A stretch of DNA of 63,991 nt, filler included, from Rhabdomonas costata (GCA_019059605.1; 13 parts of 13 records of this genome joined end to end with filler, not necessarily neighbours in it); one strand, 5' to 3'; counted from the first letter of the whole stretch, positions 1 through 37,001 are shown. The notes: a model not told the origin generated them from the sequence alone. Made by a program: numbers and translations.

Positions 1-3000
1 GTCAACACTTCTGTGGGTGTTTTCTGGGGAGCCACCCCTTCCCGGGCCCAGGCCACTGCGTGCACTTCATCCGCTTCTGCTTCTAGCTTGCTGGTGTGTG
101 ATCTCTCTGGAAAGTTGACGTTCAGCTCGAACACAACTGTAAACATTTCGCTTTGGTTCACTCCCGCGGAAACCACAGTGGGGCTGTGGCCTGGAAACCC
201 GGTTCTTCAGGCGAAGGCGTTCTCCAACACCACTGTTCCTTTCTCCATCATTGTCCGGGCACGTTTCTCGGCTGCTTTGGTGATCTCACAACCCAATCCC
301 CTGCTTGTCCCCGCTGGTGATGGTATCCAGTTGTTATATCGACTGTCCAGCACGGGCCCGACCACTGCCTTGGAGCTTCTGGAAGTGCCGGCCTTGCTGA
401 TTCAAGGCAAGGCCCTGTCATGGTATTCCTCGCCTTCTTCAGACCAGCCATTCAATCTGAGCCAATTGTCCCCCTGCCCTCTTAACTTGACAATGGGCAC
501 GCTGCAATGTGACCTCTCCCCAATCAGATCCATGTTTGCTGCTGCTTCTGGTGTCCTAATTTGGCTTTCCTTCACGCCAGTGAACACATCGGTGGGGCCC
601 GTAAACATCACCTTTTCGTTGACATCAGCCAACTTCTTTCTACTTCCCATTAGGCCTGCAATTACGGTGTTTGCCATGTTTGGTCTCCAGAATCTCCATC
701 TCACCCCGTTGATTAGCAATGTCTACCCCAGGGCCATGGACGCGATTGTGGTTGGGTACAAGATCGCGTCCACAGGACAGTCGCAAAGTGGAGAGATCGC
801 CTTGGTTTCTACTTACGGCGTCTCCGGTCCCTTGTACTGGGGTCCCTCCGCAACCAACACTACCGGCCTTACCCTTTGCCATCCCAATGGCACCGTGCTG
901 GTGTGCGTATTGGGGCCTCGGGTGCACTACCAACCTGGCTCCGCAGTGTCCGTGTTTTTCTTCTTCACTCCAAACACCTCGGTAAGCGGGGAGCTTCACG
1001 CGACGTTCACCTTTTTGGCAGATAACTTCCTTCCCGCCGAAGACACACCCTATATTGTCGTTCGTGGGCAGTTCGAGGTTCAGGTTTCTGTGCTGACACC
1101 CCGTCCTCTGCATCAGCAGACGGCTGTCATCATGTTCTCCGTTTGGGCCTCTGCATGGAGCGATGGAGGAGAAACCTTGTCGGTGCCAATTCTTCCTGAA
1201 CTTGGTGAATCGGTCAGATGGAGTCTGTCCAGTGTGGTGGGAAGTGCGACTATGTGCAATATGACGTTGCAGGAGTACGTGTGCACGTTGTCCGGGGTGA
1301 GATTCGGCCCAGCAGCTGCAGCAAACCTCTACCTCTTCTTCGGGCCAGTTTCCACTTCGGTCGGACCACTGCCCCTTGAAGTAAAGTTTGCCGCGTTAAC
1401 CTTTGACGCACTGACCACTTACCCCAACACTTCTCTAATTGGACTGCTGAACCCCAACCTTCTGCAACAGTTGCCTTCTTCCAGCCCCACTTCGGGAGAA
1501 CTCCAGTCGGTGCTTTTCAGCCTCTCCTCATCTGGTGACTCGTCATTTCCAGGATCTGTTGCTGCTAGTCTTCCTGTCTCTGCCGTCGAGGGATCTGTGT
1601 ATTTTTCGTTCAGTGGGGACCCGACCACGGGAGTGCCGTGCACCTTGAACTCTACTAACTTTACGTGTGATGTCACAACGCAAGACATGTATCTGACCCG
1701 GCAGCGACCTCTCCAGTTGTGGCTTTTCTTCTTCCCCAAGTTTAGCGCCCTGGGCGCCATGGAAGTTCCGGTGACGTTCCGCGCGCCATATTTTCAGTCA
1801 TCGAGCTACAAAATCGTGACCCTGGTGCAAGGCTTGCTCACGATCACGTCCCCCCTCCCGGTCGTCGAGCCCAACTTCCCAGTTGCCTTCTCTAGCTTCA
1901 ACATCACGTTCGTACTGCGCAGCACTGCGGACACATTTGGCGGCGAATGCGCCACAGTGCCCATCAGCGCCACTTCAGGTCCAGTATGGGTCACCGTGGG
2001 AGCTTCCAGGTGGGCGTGTTTGGCTGGATTGCTTGTCTGGAACTGCAGTCTAAATCAGAGGATTCGGGTTGGCAGCTCGGTGTCCGTTTTGTTGGAAATC
2101 ACTCCTTTGAACTCTACGGTTGGGTTCTGGGGAGCCAACATCGCCTTTACTGCCGCTGGTTTCGTGGTCACCTCGTATACTCCCGTTGTCTTTGTTGCAG
2201 CCTTGAACAGCTATCTTGCCATTTCAGCAACCCCAGCGGTCCCTTTGGTGGGGCAACAAGTTCACCTCTCTTTCACAACGCTGTCTTCAGGAGTTTCTAC
2301 TGTGGATGAAAGTCTCAGCTTGATTTCTGGAGTTGCCGACCTTGCCGCTCCAGTGCGCTGGAACACCATAAACACGCCTATTTCGGCGCACGCGTGCAGC
2401 CAGTCCTCCGTTGACACGACATGTCATCTGGACACCCACGGCTTTCATTTCTCTGCTACTCCGCAGACCCTGAATGCTTGGTTCACTCCAGCGACCGAGG
2501 TTGCCGGATATCAGCAGCTGGGTTATTTGGCCGCGTCTTACTTTGCCAGGTCCTATCTACCCACCAACGTGACTGTCTTGGGAACCCTCAGCGCAGTGTC
2601 GTCAGCCTTCAGAGTGGTGTCTGGCTTGCCGACAACGTTTCATGTTACGGTGACCTCGTCTGTGAATACCACACAAGGCGAGAAGGTAGTTGTCCGCCGT
2701 GGCTTAATGGGCGATATTCAGCTGTCGTGGTCGCTGGTGCCGGACCAGGTCACTGCTCAAGCTTGCGCCGTGGTCAGCTCAGAGTGGGTCGAGTGTCTCT
2801 TAAATACCACCCATTTTACCACGTCGCCTCAGAAGATCTTTTTCTGGGCTACGCCCAATGTGCTGGCACCAGGGGAGTCCCCTCAGTTCCTTTTCTCCGC
2901 TTCTGGTGTGGCCGCTACTGAACTATTGCCCTTTGCAGCCATTGGAGTCATGCAGGTCACAAATTTTGCTGTTTACCCATCACAATCGGTCTTGTCGGGA

Positions 3001-4887
3001 AGTCCCATATGGGTGAGATTTGACCTTAATGTGAGCGGGTACCGCGTAGTCAACACCCTCACAATAACGGTGCTGAGCAAGCACATTGACAGCAGTCTTG
3101 TGTGGTGGTCCCTCGTGAATTCCACGAAGGGGGGGCAGGAATGCGACCCAACCGGCTCCATCGTGACGTGCACTCTAACCCCTCTGTCATTGTCCAGCTC
3201 ACAGGGTATGACGGTTTTCCTGAGTTTTTACCCAGATCCGCTCTTTGTTGGTGCTATGGAGGCCAACATCAATGTGACGGCTCAAAACTACTTGACCAGT
3301 GTCATCGATTCTGGGATCACTGTTGAGGGGAATCTTAACCCGTTGTTCTCTCCACTGCTGGCATACCCCGAGTTTGTGGTCTCCGCGAACGTTCCCGTGG
3401 TACTCAGGTTCAGTGTCATTGCATCCTCTCCAACATACGGCGAGGCCATTATTGCGAACACGTCCAGCTTGGTCGACGGCGCGCTTTACTGGGGCCTGTC
3501 AGAGCTCAACAGAACACTTTGTCAGCCGATCGGAGCCGCGTCTCTGGTGTACTGTGACCTCCATTCTCTCGTTGAGTTTAACCCCGTCACGGTGACCCGG
3601 ATATGGCTATTCTTCTCCCCATTGAACACCACCGTGGGTCAGCTGGACCTTCCGCTGACGTGGGTGTCCCCTGGGTTCCGGAACTTCACATATGTCCCCC
3701 CTGTCCACGTCCATGGGATCTTCGGTGTCATTGTGGTTCCTCAGGCCATGGTGCTCCCTCCTGCCCTTGGGCTGCAGGGCTTCCCCTCGGGTACGTTGGT
3801 TACGGCTGTATTCAACGTTAGCTCTTCAGCACCCTCTTCCTCAGGGGAGGCGATTGTGCTGGAAGCAAACAAAGTTCAGGGAGCTTCCGCGTGGTGGAGC
3901 CTTTCGGCAGCGAATCCACAGGCCAACCCCTGCACGTTGAACTCTTCTGCAGTGGTAATTGTTTGCGACCTGAGCTCGGCCATGCACTTTACTAGTGCTG
4001 TCAAGGAGGTCTTTGTCACGGTGCTCCCCAATCTTCAGGCCCTTCGGCTGCTCCATTTGGGCTACACGTTCACTGCGAATGAGTTCACTCCAGCCCGGGT
4101 GCAGCCAGACATCTTTATCCTGGGCCAGTTCCAGATCGATCCCTCTGGAATCAAGGCAACACCATTGTTTGTCAAAGCTGGGGACGTCGTGCAATTGACG
4201 TATCCCGTTCGCGTATCCTCCACCATGAGCCCCTTGTTCAACCCATCTGTTTCCGTTCCCCCCAAAATGCTGTTGCCCAAAAATGGGCTCTCCTTGACAG
4301 TACTTGGGCAGGTTCCAACACCTGCGCCGTGCGCATTGCAGGGGCCACGATATGTGTGTGACCTGAGTGCTGTGTCCTTGGTTCCGTTTTCGGATGCCAC
4401 CCTTGTGCTTACCTTCTCTCCTGCCGCGGGAGTGCCAGGTGGGGTGTCCCCTTTCAATGTAATCTTCAGCGCACTGGCGTTTTTGACCTGGAGCCAGCCT
4501 GTGCCAATCGTCACTGTGGGAACGATGACCATTCTTGAGTCTAGCGCAATTCCTCCCATTCTGGGAAATGCTCCCGCCACTGTTTCGGTCAGCAGCGGAA
4601 GAAGCGTGGCCATGCATTACTGGCTCCGCTCCTCGCGGGATTCCGCGGGAGGCGAGCAAGTGGTGGTACCCCAAGGGCTGCATGAAGGTCCCGTATACTG
4701 GGGAACCTCTGGCAATGAGCTTTCTGCCATCCCGTGTCTCCCCACTTCAACGGGCGCTGCCAGTGCCAGGATGGTGTGCGACCTGTCTGCTTACTCCGAG
4801 CCCTTTGCAAGCCTATTCCCATACACCGACTTCTGGCTCTTCTTCCAAGCCCCGCTAAATGCCTCTGGAATGCTCACGGAGTCTTTG
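1..4887 (+). CDS. Fragment of a giant extracellular repeat protein: 13 tandem ~125-130 aa Ig-like/DUF11-like beta domains; open at both contig ends
   Basis: Frame open from base 1 to the N run with no stop or intron. Recurring motif [VL]x[WF]..C-x(6-13)-C[DT]L..[WY]LFF[TV]P..S.VG..F.A..F. Many N-x-S/T sequons, Ser/Thr/Val-rich, few charged residues. Confidence 0.85.
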
Positions 4888-4987
4888 NNNNNNNNNNNNN
4901 NNNNNNNNNNNNNNNNNNNNNNNNNNNNNNNTTAATTAATTAANNNNNNNNNNNNNNNNNNNNNNNNNNNNNNNNNNNNNNNNNNNN
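4888..4987. other. Artificial contig spacer (44 N + TTAATTAATTAA + 44 N). Also at 9863, 14870, 19847, 25014, 30009, 34970, 39924, 44864, 49825, 54747 and 59678
   Basis: The same 100-nt six-frame-stop linker occurs 12 times. A separate 141-N gap without linker lies at 21347-21487. Confidence 0.99.
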
Positions 4988-5075: not shown

Positions 5076-8000
5076 CTGGATATCGGTGAACACGATGGTG
5101 ACTAGCCCGGTTGGTGCGTTATCCAGTAAGCGGCGGGCATGCTCCCGTCTTCGGCGGCCCAGCACAAGGCAGACTACAAACCCAACCTGTGCGCAAGAAA
5201 GGGCTTCGCATGGTTCGTCCCCGACCTCCTGAGTAGTGAATGCACGTGTAAGAACGAACACTGGGGTTCAGTAAACGGTAGGGCAGGCCAAACCTCAGAA
5301 ATTTCAATTTCTGGCAAATCCGAACTTGCCTCCGGGTCGATCAGCATCTAAATCTTGAAAGCTTGCAAACAGACACATGGGATGGGGGTGACAGAATTCC
5401 TCCCATCACAGCCCCACCATCACACCATCACAGCTAATCATGGGCTGCACAGTCCAATATCTAAGATTTGAGTGAAAACTAAGGTTTAAATTAAAAATAA
5501 AATTGAAATTAAACTTAAACGGATAGGAAAAGCCCAACAGAAAAGTACCGTTGCGAGGAGGAGGGGGGCAAGAAAGCAAAAGTCTCTCTCAAAAGAGGAA
5601 TACGGAATAAGCAATTGAATTTCTTGGAGTTTAATCAAAATTGAACAACAGCGCGAAACTCAGGGGACACCCATAAATTTCCCGTCATCCAAAAGTCGAT
5701 ACTGCATGAGGCATGAGGATCCATAAACCTTTACAGACGACATCCTCAACGTTCACAGGTCCGAAAGAACGAGCAGTAACTCACAAAGAGCAAAGAGCGT
5801 AAAAACCAGGCTCCCAAAACCAATCCCAGCACCCTATCCCAATAGAAAGTGTGTCTCACACACAATTGCACAACGTAAGCGCAACAAACCATTACAAGGC
5901 ATCCTCCGCCCACGCCCACCACGAGGGCTATGATGAGGCGGAAAGGAGACGGGTCTGTGGGATTGGAGTAGCACTGTGCAAGGCCGGGGGCTGTGTTGGA
6001 GGTCCCCGCAGGGCACGGCAGGCAGGCCAGGGACCCAGCCGCCCAGTAGGTGTTGATAGTGCAGTTCACCTGAGGTTCACGAAGTATGAACTGTACCCTT
6101 TGGGGCGGAACCCAAGGTAACCACCGTAACAAGCAGCGGTTGCAAGATCCTCCCTGACATATTGTGGGAGCGATTAAAAGCGGCAATTCGATCGTTTGCT
6201 CGACCTGTTCCCTGACCATATTCCGGTGCCCACATCCCACAGTGCTATATCTCAGCAGAGAGCCTTTTACCTGTATGGGGTGGTGTGACAACACCACTAC
6301 CACCAAAACCGTACACAGACTATGCAATATACACGCCGGGCCGTCACCCGGATCCAAGGATCACTGGGATCTACATTTCTCCGCTCACCCCATCGCTAAG
6401 TTAGCTCAATTGTCCGCCTTTCGATGGCTGCATCTTAAAGTTACCGCGGACACCACAGAACCCATGAAACCTATCAGAAAACCTCTCTTTACAGATCTAG
6501 TTTCGCCCAAAACTAGATATAATCACTCGAAATAAGAGTTTCGCCAAGCCTTACAAGCCTCAGCAGACCGGTGCGTAGAGACACCAGAAACGAACGAGGA
6601 ACCCCAACCTGAGTCTGGCGGACGATGAGCAACGGCGTGGTGCTTGAGGTGATGGTCAGGGTGCCCTGGAGAGTGGGACAGTCCAGTCCACGGCCATTGA
6701 TGACCTCCAGAGCAGCCATGTGAACCTCGTAGGGGGTCACAAACGCTGAGGTGCCCGGCACGAACTTAATGAACCCAAAGCCGTCTCCTCCCTTGCACAG
6801 GTAGGTAGTGGTAACCACCGTGTAGATTCTGCGAAGAAGAAGGTTATTGGGCATGAAAACAGATCGAATTTATATTACAACTTTAGAAAATTTTCAAGAA
6901 ATTTCGAAAACTATTTTGAACAGTGGCAAAAATGAGGCACCCCACCGCCTCAAAAAAACAATCAAAGGTCAGCCAGCAAAGTGTCGCTCACTGGTCAGTC
7001 CAATGCCTCTGAGCATCACTCCGCAAGTGAACAGAGCAACAAAGTAAAGCTACAGAACAGAGCTTCGGAGAGAAGCTTCTTCTTCTTCTGACTAAGACCA
7101 AAAATGCAGGGAACAGACGGCCACTGAGTTTGCGGGTCCGTGTGAAACCCTTCCTTGTCTCACTTTTGGAGACCCTCCTTGAACGCCTTGACAACAGTGC
7201 CATTCTCCGCCTGCTGGCTACTGACGGCTTGCCTTGTGTGTATGTGTGTGTGTCGTGGTTTAACCTTCAAGAAACTCAAGCAGCACTGCAGCGCACCTGT
7301 GCTGAAGGGCAGGACAATGGAAAACGGGGCATGGGTTTGGAAGAAAAGGATCTTGTTCAATTGGACCAGAAACAGAATCGGCCGCACGTGACGCTTTGCT
7401 ACATACTGTTGTCATGTGCACGGTTTGTTTCTACTTTCAGAGTTCCGTTTTTGGCTCTGTCCTTTACCTCGTGTGCGCGCTTGAGCGAGACGAAAGAGCT
7501 GCCACCACAGAAAAAGTGCAGCATCTTCCCTTCAGCGGGGAGGAGGGGGTGGGGGGAGGCGCATACCTTTCGCGTTGAAGTGACCCCCAGGTGCCAGTGA
7601 TCTTGTCAAAGACCTGGATCGCGGTGATCCGAGTCCCGTTGAGTTTGGGGTTGTAGTCAACCGCAGATTGTGAAGCTGCGGGAAAGCCCCTGTGCTGGGG
7701 GCGTACTGAACGGTCGGCGCCTATGCCCTCCCCCCTTACACAGACGCGCAAACAAAAAAAAAGGTCCGCAAGCAAGAAGGCAGGTCAGAAAGAATAGAGC
7801 TGCTAGAGACAGCTATCGTGCGTGTGAGCGGTTGGAGAACACCCCATTTCAGAATACACCATCCCAAACCTGTCGCTTGCAACGGCAGCAGGAATTCCAA
7901 GCCACTCATACAAACGCTAGACAGCTAGTTCAAGTCCTCAACGTTAGCGAATACCGACTGCTCGACCGACCCAGCTAAAGAATCCCAATTCCGTCTCCTC

Positions 8001-10752: not shown

Positions 10753-11485
10753 CTATGATGGCACAGGCTTCTCGGCAGGCTCGGCCGCCTGGGGGCTGGG
10801 AATGGACCGAGGTAGGCTGGCCGTGGGCACCGAGGAACACAGAGGCGCAGTGGGCACCTGTGAACCACCCCACCCGCACTTTCCAGATGGGCATCGGAAT
10901 ACAGGTGAAACGGGTACTCGAGGAGGGGGGGGAGTATTTTCAAAAATAGTGGTAACCAATAGCAAAGTATGGTCTCTGGACAGTATGGTCTCTGCGATCA
11001 ATGTACAGCGGTATAATATCATTCCTCAAAAGAGGGAGAGAGAGAATTTTCCTCCTCTAGATACTCGCACGCCAACAGCAGTACTCCACATGCAATCCTC
11101 CACACTGCCTCAACACTCACACCAGAGATGCAGTAGCACATTAGAACGATGCTGCGGAAGACGCGGTTGTCCCATATGGAAGGAATGGGGAGGGGAAAAC
11201 CTCTGTCTTGGGCTGCTGCTGCTTTTGCAGCTGCAAGGCCTTTGCGGGGTCTATGGGCTCGTAGTCCCCGGTGAGGCCATTGATGATCGCTCGGCGGACC
11301 TCCAGGTTGAGTCTGTGGGTGGCGACGTCCGCCGGGCTGTCCCCCATTCGGCTTCGAAGATTCACATCTATGTGTGTGCAACCCGGAAGGAGTGGGCGTG
11401 GGCGGGCGGTCTGGTCTATTAGTGTGTGTGTGTGTGGGGGACGTTATAGGGTCACCGTTATGGCAAATCTGAGGGGCAGAGGTCC

Positions 11486-11520
<35 letters not shown>

Positions 11521-12789
11521 AATATCAATTCAACATGGCGATTCTCTCGAAACGTTGCGTGGCCAGTCCTTGCACCCTGTATCCACTTGCCCCTGGACGG
11601 CTCTTCAAATCTTTTGCGGCTCCTTTCCGCAGCGCAGAGTATGTACAATAAACCCATACCCTTCCCCACACCACTCTTTATGCCCGCAAACGACTGTAGC
11701 TTGAGAGAGAGAGGGGGGGGAGCAGGGGAAGAGAAGACATCGGCGCCTACCACCTGCCCCGCGGGAAACAAGCAGCTGAGCGCACCGCGCTTGCCCCCTG
11801 CGGGCGGTCCAGTGCAGTGCACTCTGCCCATAGCTGTCTCCTTGGTCAACCAGGGCCCCTGAGGGAGATATCCAAAGGGCATCCACAAGGCAGCACAGAA
11901 ACTGCAAACAAGCTCGACAAGTGTGGCCATCCAAAAAGACGGAACAGATGTGTCGGGTCGACATTAATGTGTTTTGACGTTAGGCCTGCACAAAAAGGGA
12001 AGGAGACCAAATAGTGGTCCATACAAATTCGGGAGTACTTGAGACACTGCGGTCCGCAGCGTTGGAGGGCTTGACATTACCCTTGACATTACCCAACCCT
12101 TACTGACGGAATTGGAGCAACGCAGCCTGCAGTTACATCAGCCTATTTGGATTTCTGGGATTTTTGCTCAAGCCAGTGGTTCACGTCGGCCGAAGGGTTG
12201 GTGTTAATAGCGCGGGCCAATGGAAGATAGCTGGGGAAATGGGGAAAGACGGCATACCGTTGTTCAGCAAGACCTCAGCGATTTGGTGGTGGCCACTCTC
12301 GCAGGCGTAGATCAGCGCAGCTTGTCCCCTGTTGTTACACACACGCACTCACAGAGTCAGTTGAGGGCGGCTGTTCGTCATCACAGACAGAGGTATCATT
12401 TGCCTATTTACGGAACGCGAGCAAACATACACAACTGTCAAAGAAGAGAACATATATTTTGGTGACTGCTAATTGCAAGCAGCTGAGGGCATGATCTCAC
12501 CAGAAAAAAAATATGAAAAGTGTCAAAAATGAGCAACACCCCAGAGCGGGCCATCCTTTCCGTTCTGTCAGCACCATCCAACTGTTGGAAATAGGGGAGC
12601 CACGTAAATTGCTCAAGGGGCGTGCTTTGCTGGAGTGGTGGAGGGCGTGTTTTTCTGGAGGGTTGCGAGCCTGTGCTTGAGGTTGGGATCGAAGCCCTGC
12701 CCCAGAAGCCGCACCACCTGCTCCAGGTCTCCAGCCTGGGAGGCCAGGCAGAGCTTCTCCGCTTTCACTATGGATGATTCCTCAGCCAT
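10753..12789 (-). CDS. Ankyrin-repeat protein, apparently complete. Exons 12789-~12671, ~12328-12258, 11858-11754, 11367-11201, 10857-10753
   Basis: LCLASQAGDLEQVVRLLGQGFDPN, GQAALIYACESGHHQIAEVLLNNGA, GQSALHWTARRGQARCAQLLVSRGADVN, then a Pro/Ser-rich tail. Introns 2-4 are GT-AG and phase-consistent; intron 1 lacks a GT donor. Confidence 0.85.
11489..11518. repeat. (GT)15 microsatellite, intronic
   Basis: Perfect dinucleotide run. Confidence 0.95.
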
Positions 12790-18185: not shown

Positions 18186-19140
18186 GGGGAGAGGCGGACG
18201 CCACCTCTCCTGTTTGAGGGAGCCATCCTCGAGGGTTTTCTTTGCAACCATCAGCAGCTGCCGGGGTAGCTGCCTCTTCCGCCGCACCTTCACCACACCC
18301 TCCGGTGTGGTCACTGAAAGCGCACACCGAAGGAAAATCCTCCCAGCACAGTTGTCCCGCTGGCAGGAAATGCACGGACACCACAGGTGCTTGATCCGAA
18401 GAAAGATATCAGAATGCCGGAAAAATCTTCGGGGTTACAGCAAGCCTTGGGCACGCAAATTCTTGTGGGAAACCAAGGATTTCAGGTTTTAACTTAAGTG
18501 GGGATTTTTTACACTGCAATGACAACACAGCGAGAAAAGTTTGAGGTGAGCAATCACACCCAGCAGCAACATGCAAGTCCCAAGTTGCTTCAATGCCACA
18601 TGGACCAGAGGTTGAATGCCACGCTGTGGCCAAACTTTCCTTCTCGTTCTATTTTTGAATTGGGATGTGGGCGTGACACTGGTGGCCTTTAGGGATGTGG
18701 GTGTCTTTTCGGCAGCAACTTTGGCAGTGTGGGTGGTTTGATACTGCAATTGCACGCATGTCAGCGTGGGAGTTACGGGGCGGGCGGAGTGTGCTCCTGA
18801 CACGAATATAGGGATGTGCTTACGAGCATTGTTTTCTGCCTTTCCCCTCGTCCACAGGTTGCCTCGAAAAGATAATACCCACGCTCATAAAGTTCGAGGC
18901 CTGCAACAGCCGCTTCACGCGTTCCACGTCCGAAGTCAGCGCCTGCAGCCTGGGCCCCTTCATGACATACTCCAAAGTCACGTCTGCGGGTACGCAAACA
19001 GGTCTGGAGAAGCGCCAGAGGGGGTTCATTAGGTCCGTATTATCAAAAAATAAGCCCAAGCACATACAGCACTGCTCGTCGGCATGCGAGAGAATGTTGT
19101 AGTCCATGGGCAAATTCTGGTCCGAGAAGTAATGCTGCGA
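18186..19140 (-). CDS. Probable exons of an unidentified gene (HYFSDQNLPMDYNILSHADE...LLQASNFMS; VTTPEGVVKVRRKRQLPRQ...)
   Basis: Open, codon-like segments bounded by candidate AG/GT sites. No recognisable family. Confidence 0.35.
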
Positions 19141-19741
19141 AAGAAAACAACGACGACGGACCTGGGACGGGGATGGGAAAAGAATGGGCCGTCCTCCACT
19201 TAACCACCCCCACCGGTATCCCGAGGAGGGGGTGGGAGCGTCAGCGAGCGACGAACGACGAGGAGCTTGTGCGAAGCTGAGGGTGGGCATATAAAACACA
19301 TGATGAACCTTACACATGAAGAGAATCGCTTTTTTAAGGGCATGCTCAAGTTTATAATTCTTGACGTGCAATATTTGTACGAAGAAAACCTTTGGAGGTG
19401 AGGCGGTTCAGAGGAAACGCCAAAATCTGTAAACAGCGTTTGTAGGGCAGAAAAAAAACTACGTTCCCTGGTCGGCTGAGCGGGAAGGAGACACCTGTAC
19501 TTGCTTCAGAATGGAGGCATCCCGCTGGGCCTCCTGCTGCCTCTGAAGCGGAGGGGGGATGAGTGGCACAGTTGCAAAGTGTCCATACGGAAAAAAAGCA
19601 GAGGTGCCAGCTTAAAGGGCGAGCAAGAAAATATTCTGCAAACCGTTGGCAACGTTGAGACCCACCCCTCTGAGACAAGTCCACAGCCAGCCCACGTGGA
19701 CCCTAATCTTCCTCTCAGCTTGGGTAGAGTACGGTAGGATA

Positions 19742-20594: not shown

Positions 20595-22146
20595 CTGAGC
20601 ATGTGCATGTGTGTCCGAGAAAAGGGCAGAGAAATGCGAAGGTGGCGAGGCCCCAAAAAAGATTACCTTGAACTTCAGGAACTTCGGGAAAACGACCTTC
20701 TGGTGCACTATGTGTAAGAACTGCGAGCCCATGGCGTCGAAAGTATATGGACGGTAAGAAGAGGAACAGCGGTACAAATCGAGAGGCTCCCAAATCAACC
20801 AATGTTCGGAAACATAGCGGCAAAAGACTGTCTGTGCTACTTTTTGGAACGGGACAAAAAGAATGGGAATCTTGTGCTGCTTTGTGGACATGCCTCGCAT
20901 TTCTTTCTGACAATACGTGCTTTGCTCAGGTTATCCAAGAGAAGGCCGCCGTGGGACACCTTCGCCCTCTGCAAAGCGGAAAGAGTGGATGACGCGCTTT
21001 CTAATCATCCCATCGCCCGTCAATGTTGTTTGTTTGCAAGGCAGAGTTAAGCTTGTCCTGTTTTATGTCATGTGCATGGCAATGGGAAGTCAGACCACTG
21101 TTCGTGATGACTGTCACTTGTACCTTGTCGTTAGTTTTGTACGTCTGTATCAGTTGCCATCTTGGCAGGTTGCTGTCCAGCTCCTTTCAGCACTTTCCCA
21201 ACGACGCCAGCAGACGTGGTGCGTTCATGCAATTCCAGAAGAATCGACTCGAATTGGGTCCCAGCAGAACCTTTTGGTCAGCTGGCCTTGTCGGAAGTGT
21301 TGAAATGTGCTTTTTACTTTGGGCCGACGATTTCACGTCTTTTACCNNNNNNNNNNNNNNNNNNNNNNNNNNNNNNNNNNNNNNNNNNNNNNNNNNNNNN
21401 NNNNNNNNNNNNNNNNNNNNNNNNNNNNNNNNNNNNNNNNNNNNNNNNNNNNNNNNNNNNNNNNNNNNNNNNNNNNNNNNNNNNNNNTTCCTCTGTTCGG
21501 AAAGCTGGATTACCCTGTTTAACGCGGCCCTGTATCTGCAACTGTGGTGACAACCTTGTGCGCTTCTGCAGCAAGCGTCTGGCGACGCCAGATCATTGAC
21601 ACATTTCCGACGCTGCCCAACTTTGCCCAAGCCGATTGATCGGCGCGATGATTACAACACGCACCGCCCATTGGGGAGCAAGACACTAAGAGGAAGAAAA
21701 CGCCGCTTCAGGACAATTTTGGGCGCTCAGCACCACCACTACCACACCAGAAACACAGCGCGCGCACACACAACGCAACGGCGCCAGCACAGAACCCTTC
21801 ACCCAAATCTTGAGCGGCCCATATGGGCAGCGTCCGCACCGAAGTCTATCTTTTTTACTGCGCCCCCCCAAAGATCATGATTTGGAATCCGAAAACTGTG
21901 TGTGCCGCATTTGATTGTTCTCGTGTCTGTGTTTGTTACCGTGTCTATCTCTGCACGCGGATTACGCGCCTGGGCTTGCAAATGCCCGGTGTGCTAATGT
22001 GCGTAAATCTGGGGTGGGTCCTGGGCTCAAAATTTGGACCCTCGGGTGACGATTTGCGTGGGTCTTTGCGATTTGGATTTCGGTCCTTTGGGTTTCAGTT
22101 TCGCCTTCGGTGTTTGTGCTTCGGAGTCGGCCTTATGGATTCGTGG

Positions 22147-25100: not shown

Positions 25101-25454
25101 NNNNNNNNNNNNNTGTGTAGAAGAAAACGAACAGCGAAAAAGACACAATTTGGTTGCTCCTGTTGCTTTCTTCTACTTACCATGCCAATTGGATGCCAAT
25201 TGGAGAGAACAGGAGTGGCCGCGTCGAGAGCAGGTGCTGCGATAGTTGGCTGGTTTTGAGGGCAAAAGGGCACAGAGCGGCACATAAAAATCTGAAAAAT
25301 TCCCGTGATGCAAACCTAGAATTACAGGGACCCGGCACGGTTCCGAAGGTGTACTGCAAATGAAACCAGGCTTATCCCTCGCTTGTCTCCGATTTCCCTC
25401 TCGCCATTGACGAGCGCTGAATTCTCCTGTGCTCTTCCGCTCCTCCCCTCGCAG

Positions 25455-27084
25455 GCCCTTGACCTGAACAAGGATGGCAGGGTGAGCTTCGGCGAGTACG
25501 TCGAGGCCCTCGCGCTGCTGTCCGAGCAGGGGCACCTGGGCGCGAAGACGGAGCTGGCTTTCTCGATGTTTGACAAGAACGGGGACAGGCGGTACGCTTC
25601 CCACAAAATCGAAGAACAAGTTCCGGAGCGGCGGTCAGCGTTCAGCAGTTGTAACAATCGCTTAAGAGTTTGGAGAGGATTAGATGCCAACACACGCCTC
25701 CTAATTTTCCCCACCTTAGAGTGCGATGCATATGTGCCCGGTGGTTTGTGCTGTCTTGGGCCTCTGCGCTGTCGTCCTATGTTTTTCCCCTGACGGCATT
25801 CCTTCTGGCACCAAATCCTTGTGTCGAGCACACGATGACATCCTGCCGTAATCGTGCTCCATTTTCACAGAGTCCCGTCCAGTCAGTTTCGACTTACTTG
25901 CTGTTTTCCGCCGCTCCCATATTTTGTGTCGCCCTGGTCCTGCTTTTGCCTTCCTGTGCAGAATCGCAAAGCAGGAAATGGCCATCGCCCTCAAGTACTT
26001 GAATTTCGAGCTGGATCTGGAGGAGTTCTACTACTGCGGCAGCGAGAGCGTATCCTCCGGGTCCCAGCAGGAGGACAATCTTTCGGTGCCGAAGATCGCT
26101 CCCTTGGCGCGGACGGAGTTCACTTTGCTGGAGCAGAAGGACTTCGACATCCAAATCGACTCGTGGGTGGAGGAACTCTATGCAGAGTTCGCTGTGGTAT
26201 GCCAGTCCGCTTGTCTGGTTGCCTGTGGGTGTATATGCTTCCTGTATCGTCAGACGGTTATTAATGATGCCTACCAGCTAAAATGAAACCGAAAGCTAAT
26301 AACCAAGACCGCCTTTTCTTCAGAAGGAATTTCGAGCAGTTTTTTCCGATGATGGCCAGCAGTGGTTAGCAGGGTACAGGCTGGGTGCCCGACTTGACAA
26401 GTTCACAAACCGTAGAGGTTGGGTTTGCTGGATTACCTCTGATATAAAGTGATTTCTTGGAGTATCTATCAATCACCTGGAGGTCATCCGGTAAGCCAGC
26501 CCAGATGCTTATTCATCGACTCTCAACCCACAGAACGGCAGCAGTTACCTGAGTCTGGAGGAGTTCACGGAGGCCGCTGAGCGGCACCCCTTCCTTCTCA
26601 CCCTGAGCTCGAGGTAAGCGCTTACTCTGTAGAATTCCGCTTTGAAACCAAAAATTCGGGAAACTCAAAACTTGGGAATCAAGGAAACGCTTGGGGCACA
26701 AAGTCGACTTTCTGCGTCTCCTGGGACGTGGAAAAGAACGTTATGTGGAGGAAAGTGTTCATTGCTTGGGTGGTATATGTTAGCCCATGCTTTCTGAGCT
26801 CTTGGAGGGGCCCCCATTGTCCCCTTTGAGGTGCTCCTGGGCTTGGAAGAGGAGAGAAGGCCAATTGGGGTTTTGAGGTTACCAAAAAGTTGGATTGAAC
26901 CAGCTGTCGGTTTTGTTTTGTTTTCATCAGGCTTCTGCTCGAGGGTCCAGGGAGCTTCCTGCTTGGAGGACACCTTGGAACCTGCTCCCCTATTTCAAGT
27001 GCGCACCGCTCCTTGATGTCGTCGGGTTCGGACTTCCTCTTTTCCAGTGTATCTGGGTGGCTCCACTCTTCCCACCGTCTTTAA
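25455..27084 (+). CDS. NCS/recoverin/calcineurin-B-like EF-hand protein, copy 1, 3' part. Exons 25455-25591, 25962-26196, 26534-26613, 26931-~27084
   Basis: DLNKDGRVSFGEY and AFSMFDKNGDRRIAKQE EF-hand loops, a long acidic insert, and a degenerate EF4 (NGSSYLSLEEF). GT-AG, phase-consistent. Confidence 0.85.
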
Positions 27085-29801: not shown

Positions 29802-30379
29802 AAAGGATACAATCAGCTTAGAGCCCTGCAGGGGACCATCCATAACAGCCGCCACTTTAAGGCGGCACCTCTGGCCAGTACACACCAAGCCAGGCTGGCT
29901 TTCCCCTATGCACACTGGCCTTCAGCGCAGAGCCACATTTGGAGCACTTGGAAGGCGGCTCTCGGACAACTCCATAACCCACCACATCCCCCAAACTCAC
30001 CTAACACANNNNNNNNNNNNNNNNNNNNNNNNNNNNNNNNNNNNNNNNNNNNTTAATTAATTAANNNNNNNNNNNNNNNNNNNNNNNNNNNNNNNNNNNN
30101 NNNNNNNNGGTGTTGGGTGTGATGACCCGCACCATCTCGGTCATCCTTCCCGCCCATCATCCGGTACACAGCAATGAGAAACACTGCTATTTTCAGTTCT
30201 TCCCGCCCATCATCTGGAAGGAGGAGAAAGAAAGCGCATGAAACTCTATTTAATGCCTTCATAGCTCAAGCAGTCGTACACACTCCTGCCCTCATGAGAC
30301 TCCGATCCGCGCCTAACCCCGATCAGCGCAGTCATGCTTCGTTTAGGCGCACGATCTAAACGACTCCAACTGGTCGCAC

Positions 30380-30847
30380 CTCCGAATCAGCAAAGCCATC
30401 CACTAATCGTAACAGCACCTGCACAGCGCCCGTGATGGCGTTGAGGTTCGTGTTCAGCTCATGCGAAAGGTTGCTCAGGAACCGAAGCATGTCGTCCTGA
30501 CGATGGGAGTGCAGCGCGGCCACCTCCCTCTGCACCGCACGAACCTCCGCCCACACCAACCACAACCACAACGAACGCCGACGGCAATGACCATTTCCTT
30601 CGGTTGGGATGCTGAAGCTGTTGCAGGAATATTCGCCGGATCGGCCTTGGGGCGGAAGCAGGCATTGCCGCAGCTGCCATCGCACCATAACCCACTGCAA
30701 CGCGCTCAGAGCCAGGCATATCCCCACCACTCCACCAGTGGCGCCCGCATCGAAGCCTATCAGAAGCCCCACCGCGAGAACGGAGAGACCTCCACACAGT
30801 AGGCCACACGCGGCGAAGAACAGGGCGCAGATCATTTGAATTGGGGA
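30380..30847 (-). CDS. Membrane-bound histidine kinase B: TM helices plus HisKA domain (partial)
   Basis: Two hydrophobic segments, then RFLSNLSHELNTNLNAITGAVQVL (H-box). Further hydrophobic exon-like stretches lie upstream near 31300 and 32200. Confidence 0.75.
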
Positions 30848-33701
30848 CTCTCGGAAGTTATGCAAAGAATGACCGGACGGAAAGCACAGATACACAGCAA
30901 GAAAAAGGGAGTCGCCCTGGAAAGAAACGCCCGCCTCCCAAGAGAAAGGACAGGAGACAGTGTGAGCGTGAACAGTTGCACAGCAGCCGCTTGCCCGCTT
31001 TCAAGCGGTGCTTCACATTAAAAGTCAGAAGCCTTCCTTTATGGGTCCGCGCGTCCCCAGGTCAGTCCCTTGCACTTTTGATTGAATAAGCCTTTTTATC
31101 GTCTGCCTGTCCTTATCCACTCTGCATGGGGTCTTCGCCCCACTGCGCCGCTCGCAAAAAGGGGCGCAATTGTGGATCGGTGGGGGGAACCATTCTTGCC
31201 AAATTTCAACAATGATTACCATGTCCCATGAGAAGAAATTGGATTGAAATAAATGACTCGGTAATTTAGTCTTAGCCTCCGGCATAAAGTAGCAGCAGAT
31301 GCGGAAATAGGAGCAGTGGAAGATCACTGTGAGGGCTGTGACAGTGATGAGATGAAGGACTTTTAAGAGAGCGGGTTTGGAACGAAAATAGCATTGGAGT
31401 GGCATCACTCTGGAGCCAGGCCGCCCTGGTCTTCTTTCGCCAGGAGAAGTAGGGGCTGGCTTTTTCAGCAGGGTGGATGGGAGAATGAGATGGCCTCCTC
31501 ACATGACCGTCCGCACGTGGTTCTCGCATTGGGTCTCCCACTGAAAAAAGGGCTTGTTGTAATGCATGCATACCAACACATTCGTGCACACCTGCCTGCC
31601 GATGCACTTTCACCTTTCTCTCTCAGTGGGAATGTGCTGGCGACTCCGTCGCTGTTCACTGGAAGTTGTCGCTTTCCTTCTATTCCTTCCATCCATTTTT
31701 TCAAGTTGCTTTGGTTTTGCCGTCACTGCACTTTTGCGCACTTTACTAATAGGGTTCCTTTGCAGGCACTCTGCCTCTTTACCTCTTTATTAGTGCAATT
31801 CACGTGGATCAGTGGATAATAATGTTTTCTCAGCGATACATTCAGTTCCATTAACCTTGTCTGCGCTTTTGCGTTTAGTCAACACAAGCACCGTCACCAA
31901 AGGTGACAAAAGGGGGTACCTTCTCAGAAGAAGAATTCAATGCGCAACAAGGCTTGGCCGCAGCCCCACACTGTATTGGGCATCGGTGTGAAACCGATGT
32001 CACAGAACACAAAACGAGAAAAGGAAATTTGGAAGGAGAAAGGAATCTCTCCGATAGAGACACGGTTTCCCACACAATACGTAAATCTAGAAGACCAGAT
32101 TATGACCATGTAGCCAAGCCCATGCTTCCATCTGTACCGGGACGAGAATGTGATTGGGCGAAGCTTGGTCAAGGAGGTGTATAAAGCAGCCCATGACATA
32201 GCACGCACAAAAGTCCCATACCTGAAGTCCCTCCTTGAAGAGAACAACACGCACAGGCATGGAGTTCTCCGTGTTGGAGGGGGTTCTTCCAACAACAATT
32301 GACGCAGAACGAAGAGAGAGACTCGTGCGGAAAAGAAATTGCCCTAGAAAGGCATCATTCTCTTGCCGGCTAGACCCCCGAACCCTCTTTCTCTCCATTG
32401 TTGCGCTCAGAGCTCAGAAAACGGGCAAACCACAGCAGGAGGTGTGCGGGCAACCGATATAGTATGCTGTACATCACAGAAAATAGAGAAGAACCAAGTT
32501 GGGGTTAGGTGCAGTGCGGTACCGTGCGGTACCGTGCGGTGCGGTCACTGCACACAAAAGGTGCGAAGGTGTTGGAAGTGGGGAGAGGATGTAGCAGTGA
32601 AAATGAACGCCCCAGCAGACCTGCGTATGTGTCGCAACACCCGTCCATCGCCCTCAAAGTGGTGCAAGCAATAGGACACAGTCATGGAGGGGAGAGGGGC
32701 GGAACCACAGCGAAAGTGACGGGCACATCATCCCCAGGGGGTCCCACAACCAAGTACGACGAGAAGACAACAGCAACCTCCTCAAGACGGGGAAGCGGGA
32801 GCGTGAAAACACCCGTCCGTTTCGAGTACAGCGGAGGGAAGACTGCATCAACATTTTAAGGGGACATAAGAAGGATGGAGCAGAGAGGTCGCCGTGGTTC
32901 ACGTCATCGAAGCACAGAAAGAAGAGGGGGCGGGTTCATATTAAGCACAAAAACCAGCGCTCAGCACAAAAGGTAAACGTGTACAGCAACTGATGGAAGG
33001 GAAAGAACGTGCAAAACTTACACGCACCAAACCCAACTGCAAAGATCCCTGATTTAATCGGGTAACCTTCAAATATGAGCATGGAGCTGGCAAAAGGTAC
33101 GGAGTGCATGATCCTGAGAGAAGGGGGTATTGCAAAAAGGTGATGGAGAGGGCAGGAAATTCCCGGCTGAAACAAAAAATGGGTGGGTATGGGGTTAGGT
33201 GGATGCAAAAAGTGCAAAGGCGTTGCAGTCCGAGCGCCCGGTATACAGCGCACACCCACACATTTCTTTCAGCTGCCGACTTCTAAGGAGACAAACCAGG
33301 TCCACGGGCCCGGGCTGCGACGGCATGCCCAGTTCCCAAGCACGGGAGGACAGCGAACGCATCACAAAAACACGCACGGCAGTAGCACGGTCGGAACGGG
33401 ACCGCTGTGCTTGAGGCAGTCACCAAGGTTTTCACAACATCCGAGAACACACCACGTTTCAGTGAGCCAAGGCAATATACAGTGCTGTTAACGCGCAAAA
33501 GCGTGTGCAAGTCAAAAAAACCACTCTGGTTTTTGTCGTGCACAGTTTACAGAGGTACCCTCAGTGAGGAGACTGGTGGTTTTTTCGAGGAGAGAACCTC
33601 GACAAGGCGACGTCCTTGAGGAGATAAGGGTCACAAAAACGGACTGGGGTCCAGGACAAGGGCACGCCAACAGAGCCGGGGTGCCCACTCCTGAGCCGGG
33701 C

Positions 33702-34969
33702 TCAGACCTCCACCTCTCCGGGTGACGACCTGGGATCATGTCTGGGATCCCCCACCTCCAAGAAATCCGAGGAGGTCAGCACAATCTGGGGGCAGGACGG
33801 TGACTCCTCCAACGCGGCGGCGCCCCCCGCCGACGGCGTCGACTTGATCCGGCAAAAGGACCGTTCGATTGGGACAAGTGTGGGGGCGTCCCGCTTCACA
33901 ACCCCCTCTGGGACATCGCCCCATACAGTCTCGTACACCCCAAGCACCGTCTCCAGGAGGTACTCCCGGCTCACCGGCTTCAGCAGCGTGGCCTGCATCC
34001 CCGCCTCCCGGCAGGACTGCCGGAGCTGCGTGGTGTGGTCCGCGGTGACCGCTGAGGAAGTGAAAAGGAAAGCAGGAACTGCACTGTAGAGAATCGTGAC
34101 GACCATCATGGAGAACGTTGAGAAAAGACACACTGAGTCGGGTGTAAAGGGTAAAAACTGTACGGACAGTGTCATGCACCGACGTTGGCTCAAAATCACA
34201 TCATATGTTGAGAAAACACATATACACACACCTATCACGGGAAGAATTGACGGGCTCATGCTCTTCCGCAACTCCAACGTCATCTCCAGCCCACTCATCT
34301 CTGGCATGTGGATATCGCTGAGCACGATGCCTCGGAATCCTGGGTTGGTCTGTGCACGGGCCCGGACGTTCTCCACCAGCTCTGCCGCACTCTCGAACGT
34401 GAACACCTTGGCGTAAACGAGGCCGGCCACCATCCTGGACAGCAGCAGGCGGTTGATGCTGTTGTCGTCCACCACAAAGATTTCCAGCGCAGGAGGGGCG
34501 GGACTGGAAGTGGACGAAGCCAGGCTGATATCGTCAGCGGGCGGGGAGGAAATCCTCCTGAGAATTTCCCCGGAACCAGCCAAAATGCGTTAACAGCATC
34601 ACATTGACAGCAACAATGTTCAGGGATATGTTCAACTGAAGAGGTAAGCATCCAGGAAAAAAATGGGGAAAAGTGCGAACCAGCCGAACAAGAAAACAGA
34701 AAGGAGAGATGCGGGGTGATGGCCGATGTGAGGTACAATGATTGACCCGGCTGCTCATAGTACTGTGTTTCTGTAATAACTTTCTCTGCCCGATCGAGAA
34801 AAGGGCCAAATGGGGATGGAGGTGCACGGAACGGCGATTGAGAGGCCTCACACCGGCTCATCGTGGCGAGGCTTGCGACGGCGCTGAGGGTGGGCGAAAG
34901 CGCGGTGCCCAGAGCCCCACTGCCCTCCTCCGCCTGTTCAGAATCCATGGTGAGATATACCACCACACA
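33702..34969 (-). CDS. Hybrid histidine kinase A, C-terminal receiver domain. Exons ~34969-34854, 34557-34232, 34051-33702
   Basis: IFVVDDNSINR, VLSDIHMPEMSGLE, PVIAVTAD, AGM...LLKPV: complete REC motifs with the phosphoacceptor Asp. A 180-nt in-frame GT-AG intron lies at 34231-34052. Confidence 0.85.
34128..34197 (+). repeat. Dispersed ~70-bp repeat family A, copy 1 (inside the HK-A intron)
   Basis: ACACACTGAGTCGGGTGTAAAGGGTAAAAACTGTACGGACAGTGTCATGCACCGA aligns with 58868-58937. Confidence 0.8.
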
Positions 34970-35747: not shown

Positions 35748-37001
35748 CTTCTCCTTGAGCAGCTGCTTGAAGGGGTACAGGTTGCACACCACGACGTCCA
35801 CGAACTGGTAGCCCCGGGTGGTCATGTCCTGCTCATCGGTGGGGATGTGGCGGGCCAGGATCCCCCCGTGCACCGCGGGGTGCAGCGTCTTCACCCGACC
35901 TGTTGGCCACACGCCCTCTCTCTTTCTCTTTCTCTCTCACTCTCTCACCCGCATAGCACTTTCGGGGCATCACTCATGTTTCGCTTGCCCTCGGGGAAGT
36001 TCAAGTTCATTAACCTGACCCAATTTTCCAATCTTGAAGCGTTGAGGACTACCAGACTTCGCGTGTTTCTCCTGTACTCTCCTGGAATGTCAGAATCACT
36101 CGAAACACGTTGAAGGAGCCCCAGCACCCGATGTCAAGTGCTCAAAATGACCATCATAAATAGCTAAAACAAGAATAATCCCCTGGAGCTAGCAATGCCC
36201 TCCCTCGAATGCTATTTGCTATCCCCGACAACTGTTTTCTGTTTGCTACAACAAAGCTACGTCAAACACCGCTACTATATTTGCGACCCCTCCACCATCA
36301 AATATTTTCTTGAGGGAGGCCAAAATAGATTCCCCAGTGGTGGTCTGATGTGCAAAAATCAATGAAAAATAGAGACGGGGGCACCCACCGCCGAGCATCT
36401 CAGGGGCCTTGGTGATCTCGGAGACGTCCTTCACGGGCAGGCCAAGGCCACGGAGCTTGGTCGAGGTCCCTCCGGAGGCCACCAGAGTGAACCCCAGGGC
36501 GTGCAAGCCTTGGGCCAGCACATCAATCCCTAGAGTCCAAAAAACCAACACACACACACACACAAACGCACACACATACACTGCATCCAGGAGGCATTGC
36601 TGCTGCGGAGGTACTTTCTGCCTGTTTCCTGAGGCTTCTGGGAGGGGGAGGTGCTGGGATTGTGCTTCTTCTTGGGAAACCTCAATAGCGCATTCAACCG
36701 CGGTTCTAACATTACACTGCTCATTGCAAACGACACAGCTCATTGCAAACGCAAATTGTCAGGCTGAGTCTTTGACGACAGCACAAAACCACGAAAGTGG
36801 AGCACATATATATAAGAAGCGCCTACGAGACGGAAAAATGTAATCTCTGTCTAAATCGATCCATGGGTTCATGTTGTGCAAACTGTCGCCAAGTACACGG
36901 CCAAAGAGGTGAGAGAGCAGACCCGTCTTGTCGTAGACCGAGAGTACGGCCACCTTCGGCGCCTTCTCCGTCTTCTGAACCTTAGCGGGAGGCTCGGCCA
37001 T
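35748..37001 (-). CDS. purH: Bifunctional AICAR transformylase/IMP cyclohydrolase, 5' part. Exons 37001-36923, 36529-36389, 35899-35748
   Basis: [52 protein letters not shown]. All junctions are GT-AG and in phase. Confidence 0.95.

Follow-up and report, generated by a model that had tools for sequence, protein, structure and literature searches.

Giant reading frames of Rhabdomonas costata encode tandem arrays of a DUF11-like domain shared by euglenids and diplonemids

The DNA considered here (the window) is a stretch of 63,991 nucleotides from the euglenozoan Rhabdomonas costata (GCA_019059605.1). It consists of 13 contigs, each of about 4.2-5.1 kb, joined by spacers of the form N44-TTAATTAATTAA-N44 (the first at 4888-4987), and one contig has an internal gap of 141 N (21347-21487). 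Since these are separate contigs joined by spacers, their position side by side in the window is uninformative about linkage. Two of them, the first (1-4887) and the eleventh (49925-54746), each carry a giant reading frame composed of a repeated domain; these two frames and the family to which they belong are the subject of this work.

In the first contig, frame +1 (P0001) is stop-free over its entire length (1-4887; 1629 codons) and open at both ends. In the eleventh, the frame beginning at 49925 (P0002) extends for 1602 codons (49925-54730), is open at its 5' end, and stops within a domain at a TGA (54731-54733) that lies 13 nt short of the contig end. The original prediction, a reading of the window that preceded this analysis, had both frames filling whole contigs. 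The contrast that it drew with short exons elsewhere stands, as no further stop-to-stop frame of more than 320 residues occurs anywhere in the window and the coding pieces of the other contigs are 55-96 codons long. Antisense and alternative-frame open reading frames (ORFs) match no Pfam family.

A hidden Markov model (HMM) of the domain, derived from Cys-centred units, detects 13 copies per protein, 11 complete and 2 partial terminal ones, in agreement with the 13 and at least 12 that had been predicted. The complete copies score 83-125 bits. The model does not find the domain in any frame of the other eleven contigs. The coordinates of the domains, of a frame break at the end of the second domain-bearing contig, and of the domain used for structural modelling are as follows.

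1-249 (partial), 244-663, 658-1056 and 1051-1431, plus strand: P0001 domains 1-4, by the domain HMM
1426-1821, 1810-2190, 2185-2571 and 2563-2937, plus strand: P0001 domains 5-8, by the domain HMM
2929-3318, 3313-3705, 3715-4113, 4108-4509 and 4522-4887 (nearly complete), plus strand: P0001 domains 9-13, by the domain HMM
49925-50275 (partial), 50279-50680, 50675-51058 and 51110-51499, plus strand: P0002 domains 1-4, by the domain HMM
51500-51901, 51896-52285, 52280-52660 and 52655-53038, plus strand: P0002 domains 5-8, by the domain HMM
53081-53467, 53462-53842, 53837-54226, 54221-54607 and 54602-54730 (partial), plus strand: P0002 domains 9-13, by the domain HMM
53081-53467, plus strand: representative domain for the structure model, 129 residues, P0002
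54707-54746, plus strand: frame break at the end of the second domain-bearing contig

The domain is about 128 residues long and contains a pair of cysteines. There are 13 such pairs in P0001 and 12 in P0002, with a period of 113-135 residues. One pair per domain had been predicted correctly, but the predicted spacing, C-x(6-13)-C, must be replaced by a slightly wider one, since the two cysteines are 9-15 residues apart (C-x(8-14)-C). Within an alignment of the 22 complete domains, 11 from each fragment, every copy has the second Cys and the Pro of L-x-F-x-P, and the first Cys and the Gly of V-G are conserved in at least 90%. These residues include parts of the characteristic strand of the domain, L-x-F-x-P-x4-V-G, whose conservation in the alignment bears out the LFFxP..S.VG strand described earlier. 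Otherwise the copies are quite dissimilar, being only 17-36% identical to the first copy. Tandem Repeats Finder reports no DNA-level repeat in either giant-frame contig, indicating that the domain copies are old and divergent.

The composition of both proteins is unusual. P0001 contains 31 N-x-S/T sequons versus 12.9 +/- 3.1 in shuffled sequences, and P0002 contains 37 versus 14.1 +/- 3.1. This is an excess of 2.4-2.6 times the shuffle expectation, and the observed count was reached in none of 1000 shuffles for either fragment, so the dense N-glycosylation sequons of the original prediction are well founded. Charged residues make up just 8-9% of P0001 and P0002.

A subtype of the domain with a longer Pro-rich linker in front recurs at about every fifth domain (51110-51499 and 53081-53467 in P0002; 1426-1821, 3313-3705 and 4522-4887 in P0001). 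Domains 4 and 9 of P0002 score 182 against each other, and domains 5, 10 and 13 of P0001 score 113-147 against these two. This recurrence hints at an older super-repeat.

When the representative domain is modelled by AlphaFold2 (AF2) with the 22-domain alignment, the result is a nine-strand beta-sandwich with a mean predicted local distance difference test score (pLDDT) of 86.6 and a predicted template modelling score of 0.80. The conserved cysteines, Cys 70 and Cys 79, lie on either side of a beta-hairpin (strands 71-73 and 76-80). Foldseek matches this model to generic immunoglobulin (Ig)-like sandwiches only, the best being integrin alpha-V (E 2.3e-3), and the VIA fold search likewise gives generic Ig-like matches with a best Z of 7.9 and no row prominent. 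An array of such domains agrees with the rod of Ig-like beta-sandwiches that had been proposed.

Family models give no direct placement. Pfam has no match for either whole fragment or for any of the 22 single domains, NCBIfam has none for the domains, and a PDB sequence profile search with the domain yields nothing useful (best E 0.25). An exhaustive search with a profile of the 22 complete domains is more productive, as it matches 156 proteins at E<=1e-3, 49 at E<=1e-10, and 12 at E<=1e-30. The top matches are giant or fragmentary proteins that lack a Pfam family. From about E 1e-12 downward, weaker matches appear to prokaryotic (bacterial- or archaeal-type) proteins with DUF11 (PF01345, "conserved repeat domain"), a domain of bacterial and archaeal cell-surface proteins. 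When 55 long matches were scanned, 42 contained PF01345 above the cut-off (a gathering score of 24.6 bits), 10 had no family, and the remaining 3 had other families only (a Diplonema protein with TIG/EGF/PDZ, one with PKD, and one with Calx-beta).

The relationship to DUF11 is also seen when profiles are compared directly. Aligned by hhalign to ten Pfam-delimited DUF11 domains, the domain profile gives a probability of 93.0% (E 3.4e-7); the alignment covers 96 columns and matches Cys pair to Cys pair. A profile of 109 euglenozoan domains gives 93.2% (E 3e-7). Controls with reversed or column-shuffled DUF11 alignments reach at most 0.6% probability (E>=0.098). With filters off, an HMM of 10 DUF11 sequences makes in-register matches to 10 and 11 of the 13 domains per fragment. 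In a language-model feature search, DUF11 clusters are listed at 0.81-0.85; the tool itself describes such results as no more than a lead. Thus, the "DUF11-like" guess of the original prediction proves apt despite the lack of a direct Pfam match and, as judged by sequence, the domain is a divergent eukaryotic branch of the DUF11 superfamily that lies outside the Pfam family as now defined.

DUF11 and the domain described here are both beta-sandwiches of about 115-130 residues that occur in long tandem arrays. They have a common pattern of a strand, a G-x-x-x-A/GGE turn, a strand, C-x(n)-C across a hairpin, L/G, and two long strands. Unlike DUF11, the present domain occurs in a eukaryote, carries an excess of N-glycosylation sequons, and has the L-x-F-x-P-x4-V-G strand in place of the G-x-x-x-N-x-A end of DUF11. 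The surrounding architecture differs as well: the bacterial DUF11 matches have sortase, IPTL-CTERM, OmpA or T9SS anchors, whereas in the relatives of the giant frames the array is linked to EGF/TIG, a multi-pass membrane module, and an EF-hand.

The closest relatives of the two fragments are euglenozoan. An organism look-up covered 30 clusters, 8 of which had an organism name. Seven of these eight come from euglenozoans: Rhabdomonas costata, Jenningsia sp., Euglena gracilis, Petalomonas cantuscygni, Sulcionema specki (two clusters), and Diplonema papillatum. The remaining one is a DUF11 protein from a bacterium, and kinetoplastids are not found among the eight. One further EukProt transcript is labelled merely "Hpha_". 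The relatives include RCo024212 of R. costata (5970 residues), EG_transcript_34787 of E. gracilis, and KAJ9438826.1 (7967 residues, labelled "Cell death abnormality protein 1, partial"), KAJ9448045.1 and KAJ9438469.1 of D. papillatum. As the best matches, the euglenozoan relatives score up to 1054 bits and contain arrays of 20-34 domain copies, with 22-30% identity to the window fragments. Word-indexed searches of a collection of 5.8 billion clusters, made at near lengths for P0001 and at shorter lengths for P0002, found no closer protein, and metagenome locus scans found no relative for P0001 or for a 436-residue part of P0004.

For P0001, the relationship extends to the order of the domains. 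BLASTP of P0001 against P0006 gives E 1.6e-154, and P0001 domains 4-13 pair one for one with P0006 domains 1-10 (diagonal mean 144.7, compared with 66.0 overall). Domains 4-9 pair with domains 1-6 of a Jenningsia transcript, P0008 (125.0 compared with 61.8 overall), and domains 1-2 pair with the last two domains, 11-12, of P0007 (137 each). P0007 and P0006 lie on one 461-kb ENA contig, with one domain unaccounted for between them. As P0001 bridges the junction between them, P0007 and P0006 represent successive parts of a single gene. The positional orthology to a transcript of Jenningsia, a euglenid, argues for a native, expressed and conserved gene.

The family is thus common to euglenids and diplonemids, and it is undescribed. 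A full-text search for DUF11 with euglenids or diplonemids turned up no paper on it, as far as titles and abstracts tell. These proteins go unmentioned in the passages searched of the genome paper on Diplonema (PMC10161547), whose supplements may list them, and likewise in those searched of a subcellular-proteomics paper on Diplonema (PMC12697944). Four identifiers were looked for in three supplementary text files of the proteomics paper, and none occurs there; its other supplements may list these proteins.

The architecture of complete members is evident from three full-length relatives: the Rhabdomonas protein with 22 domain copies, a 6555-residue metagenome protein with 20, and the Diplonema protein with 34. 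In each, a Cys-rich stretch (about 750-1000 residues, 12-16% Cys) comes after the array and leads into about 1000 further residues. After these come about six strongly hydrophobic helices within about 350 residues, an EF-hand-like motif, and a tail. The C-terminal portion (about 1,100-2,300 residues) is collinear among the three proteins at 30-36% identity, and the non-repeat part of the Diplonema protein contains TIG, EGF, DUF7630, and a C-terminal PDZ. Three relatives with complete N-termini have a signal-peptide-like hydrophobic start. Together with the sequon excess and the conserved Cys pairs, these starts and the C-terminal membrane segments are in accord with the predicted surface protein.

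The nature of the membrane module is less clear. Relatives that have it match Pfam TRP (PF06011) with 21.2 and 19.3 bits (E 1.4e-4 and 5.5e-4), under the 28.5 gathering score, and match EF-hand models at sub-threshold levels as well. An AF2 model of the module has a pLDDT of 75.2, but Foldseek, VIA and a PDB profile search give no informative match to it and no match to a channel. Consequently, the TRP-like reading comes solely from the sub-threshold Pfam matches, and the idea that the module is a channel is purely hypothetical. A module of the same kind (DUF7630, about six helices, an EF-hand, and sub-threshold TRP) is also present behind FG-GAP repeats, Ephrin_rec_like repeats and TIG in other proteins (P0156-P0161). 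It looks like a widespread protist receptor chassis for which there is no curated family.

The explanation that we favour, with a probability of roughly two in three, is that each of the two contigs carries a piece of a native gene (one gene or two in all) for a giant N-glycosylated euglenozoan membrane protein with a role in adhesion or sensing, and that both pieces code for parts of the extracellular stalk of this protein. The stalk would be a chain of about 128-residue beta-sandwich domains that are remote homologues of prokaryotic DUF11, each probably pinned by a disulfide across the beta-hairpin and decorated with N-glycans. Given about 4 nm per domain, the usual value for Ig-like domains, 13 domains would span about 50 nm. 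By homology with the full-length relatives, the stalk would be followed by a Cys-rich EGF/TIG region, the multi-pass membrane module, an EF-hand, and a cytoplasmic tail. This combination suggests that an adhesive or sensing tip is held far from the membrane and that contact or force at the tip may be coupled, via the C-terminal module, to a response of the membrane or of Ca2+.

Several observations weigh against this explanation. Both fragments end inside the array, so that neither the N-terminus nor a membrane segment is present in the window, and an HMM of the membrane module of the relatives has no match in any of its frames. Anchoring of this particular protein is therefore suggested by relatives that are only 22-30% identical. 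P0002 has no positional orthologue among the relatives compared. The Foldseek and VIA searches point to no particular family, and PF01345 fails to match the whole fragments or the 22 single domains even at E<=10. In addition, GC at third codon positions (GC3) in the two frames is 0.62, below the 0.75 of Pfam-supported exons on other contigs (363 codons), and the tetranucleotide correlation of the two contigs with the others is 0.65-0.69, compared with 0.74-0.80 for most. These differences could reflect amino-acid bias or a different origin; the comparison is a weak test, since it is confounded by the odd amino-acid composition of the giant frames.

Other explanations assign the arrays a different fate or origin. 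A secreted structural component, such as a flagellar hair, coat or extrusome filament, would consist of the array only and would be assembled outside the cell without an anchor of its own. P0005, P0006, P0007 and P0153 are indeed array-only in their records (12-21 domains, with no hydrophobic segment), the high sequon load and low charge would suit an extracellular matrix protein, and there is old work on high-molecular-weight flagellar surface glycoproteins and mastigonemes of Euglena, in the available parts of which no genes were found named. However, the array-only records are partial or split gene models. P0007 and P0006 belong to one gene, as discussed above. P0153 (2927 residues) shares a 90%-identity cluster with P0154 (7967 residues) and P0011, and its domain coordinates follow those of P0154 with a shift of 20 residues, so that it probably represents an incomplete model of the P0154 gene or of a near-identical one. 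The membrane module is present in every relative whose record extends past the array to a C-terminus, and a protein without an anchor is possible but rather doubtful. Decaying pseudogenes or non-functional repeat DNA would account for the in-frame stop and the potential frameshift that lie 13-40 nt before the second contig ends. Yet this sole break falls at the edge of a contig, the place where base calling is least dependable, and about 9.7 kb are otherwise stop-free, with no DNA-level repeat. Copies at 17-36% identity still keep the Cys, Pro, Gly and hydrophobic strand pattern, and decay of this kind is hardly credible.

The absence of introns would also be explained if the contigs were bacterial, from prey, a symbiont or a contaminant, or were products of recent horizontal transfer or retroposition, as the original prediction had allowed. 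Among the matches scanned, DUF11 is overwhelmingly prokaryotic; no intron interrupts 4.8 kb, in contrast to the exon pieces of 55-96 codons on the other contigs; and GC3 differs as described above. On the other hand, no prokaryotic Pfam or NCBIfam model matches the domains, and bacterial proteins appear only from about E 1e-12, far behind the euglenozoan relatives at up to 1054 bits. The positional orthology with the Jenningsia transcript, a sequon excess that suits a eukaryotic secretory protein, and relatives that combine the array with EGF, TIG, PDZ and EF-hand all speak against a foreign source. So does base composition in part: GC (0.55 and 0.54) and the observed/expected CpG ratio (0.70 and 0.73) of the two giant-frame contigs are inside the ranges of the rest of the window (0.51-0.55 and 0.67-0.86, respectively), and of the proposed compositional comparison with the host only GC3 and the tetranucleotide correlation come out lower. 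The coding sequence of relatives is also very long per contig, since a Diplonema relative of 7967 residues (23.9 kb coding) occupies a contig of 27.8 kb and a metagenome relative of 6555 residues lies on one of 57 kb. The contrast in exon length thus seems to be characteristic of the family and not a mark of retroposition. As the family occurs in both euglenids and diplonemids, a transfer, if there was one, would have to be ancient. We regard contamination or a recent transfer as unlikely and assign a foreign source very little probability.

How the fragments relate to each other bears on whether the favoured membrane protein is encoded here by one gene or by two. P0002 is 25% identical to P0001 over 1476 columns. 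In a domain-by-domain matrix the means are 67.1 between the fragments and 61.7 and 80.4 within them, and there is no diagonal, so collinear paralogy of P0001 and P0002 was rejected. At the end of P0002, after L-L-P-S-G, the frame enters seven unrelated codons and then the TGA (54731-54733); the +1 frame from a GGGG run is open for 13 codons up to the contig end. This break could reflect a wrong base call near the contig end, a genuine frameshift, or an intron.

The two contigs might be directly adjacent in one gene, 49925-54746 followed by 1-4887, giving at least 25 domains and about 3,240 residues in one exon. The phases of their ends are complementary: the last domain of P0002 stops at HMM position of about 40 (about 53 with the +1 tail) and P0001 starts at position 55. 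Joined in silico, the ends score as one complete domain (HMM 4-126, 68.6 bits), which is split when at least 20 residues are deleted. However, phase agreement within about 10 residues is estimated to occur by chance in about 15% of cases, and the contig ends have no nucleotide overlap. Moreover, the domains that would then precede P0001 are out of order relative to P0007, where the offset of -2 averages about 68 compared with an overall mean of 58.7. The single gene of more than 3,200 residues that had been proposed is therefore unproven, as domain-by-domain orthology does not support direct adjacency, and we consider adjacency improbable.

By design, the favoured giant membrane protein is not a new kind of system. 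Long stalks of Ig-like repeats are common on surface receptors. A parallel in design is offered by Mstax of Chlamydomonas, described in a preprint as a protein of about 8000 residues with an extracellular shaft plus a transmembrane region resembling PKD2 (bioRxiv 10.1101/2024.12.24.630281). As a working analogy, ciliary surface giants of the Mstax/polycystin type and the present family would each combine a giant extracellular shaft with a membrane region, possibly channel-like in the present family, and with a cytosolic portion; the likeness is no more than an analogy and does not imply membership. The shafts have no sequence relationship, as that of Mstax is made of hydroxyproline repeats and lectin domains and the present one of DUF11-like domains.

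A more speculative extension, to which we give only a slim chance, is that the genes of these giants encode the high-molecular-weight glycoproteins of the euglenozoan surface or flagellum. DUF11 would have been taken up before euglenids and diplonemids split, and a stalk of about 100 nm would be combined with a TRP-like EF-hand module. If true, this would be a mechanosensory or adhesive "hair-channel" device, convergent with Mstax-PKD2 of Chlamydomonas and polycystin-1 of animals.

Euglenids and diplonemids are abundant protists whose cell surfaces are poorly known. The present work places an unannotated domain that is invisible to Pfam in the DUF11 superfamily, and it delineates a conserved family of membrane proteins of 6,000-8,000 residues that is built from this DUF11-like domain across both groups. 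Annotators gain a gene profile and diagnostics for split genes, and the misleading label "Cell death abnormality protein 1" can be corrected. The family is also a candidate for surface adhesion or sensing, which is testable in the genetically tractable D. papillatum.

Some side observations concern the remaining eleven contigs. An Rfam scan of the whole window finds 0 families. The longest ORF besides the giant frames (11019-11963, minus strand, 314 residues) crosses a CA/TG microsatellite that is translated as His-Thr repeats; given this content and the lack of a Pfam match, it is probably non-coding. Another ORF (5746-6360, minus strand) has a Cys-rich stretch followed by a hydrophobic segment and matches no Pfam family. 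It does not represent the membrane module of the giants, since the module HMM has no match in the window.

The Pfam-supported coding pieces on these contigs are short (55-96 codons) and belong to Response_reg, HisKA, EF-hand and MGS. Exon-like pieces at 36246-36758 (minus strand), 25320-25793 (plus strand) and 18820-19407 (minus strand) match MGS-like (E 1e-9), EF-hand (E 1.6e-6) and, weakly, La (E 1.3e-4), respectively, and fit an intron-rich eukaryotic genome. Pieces of a hybrid histidine kinase are found at 30356-31000 and 33702-34589, both on the minus strand, with HisKA at E 5.7e-6 and a receiver domain at E 7.9e-14. The receiver match ends at position 74 of the 111 in the model and, by eye, picks up about 60 codons on in the same frame; the interruption looks like a short in-frame GT...AG intron.

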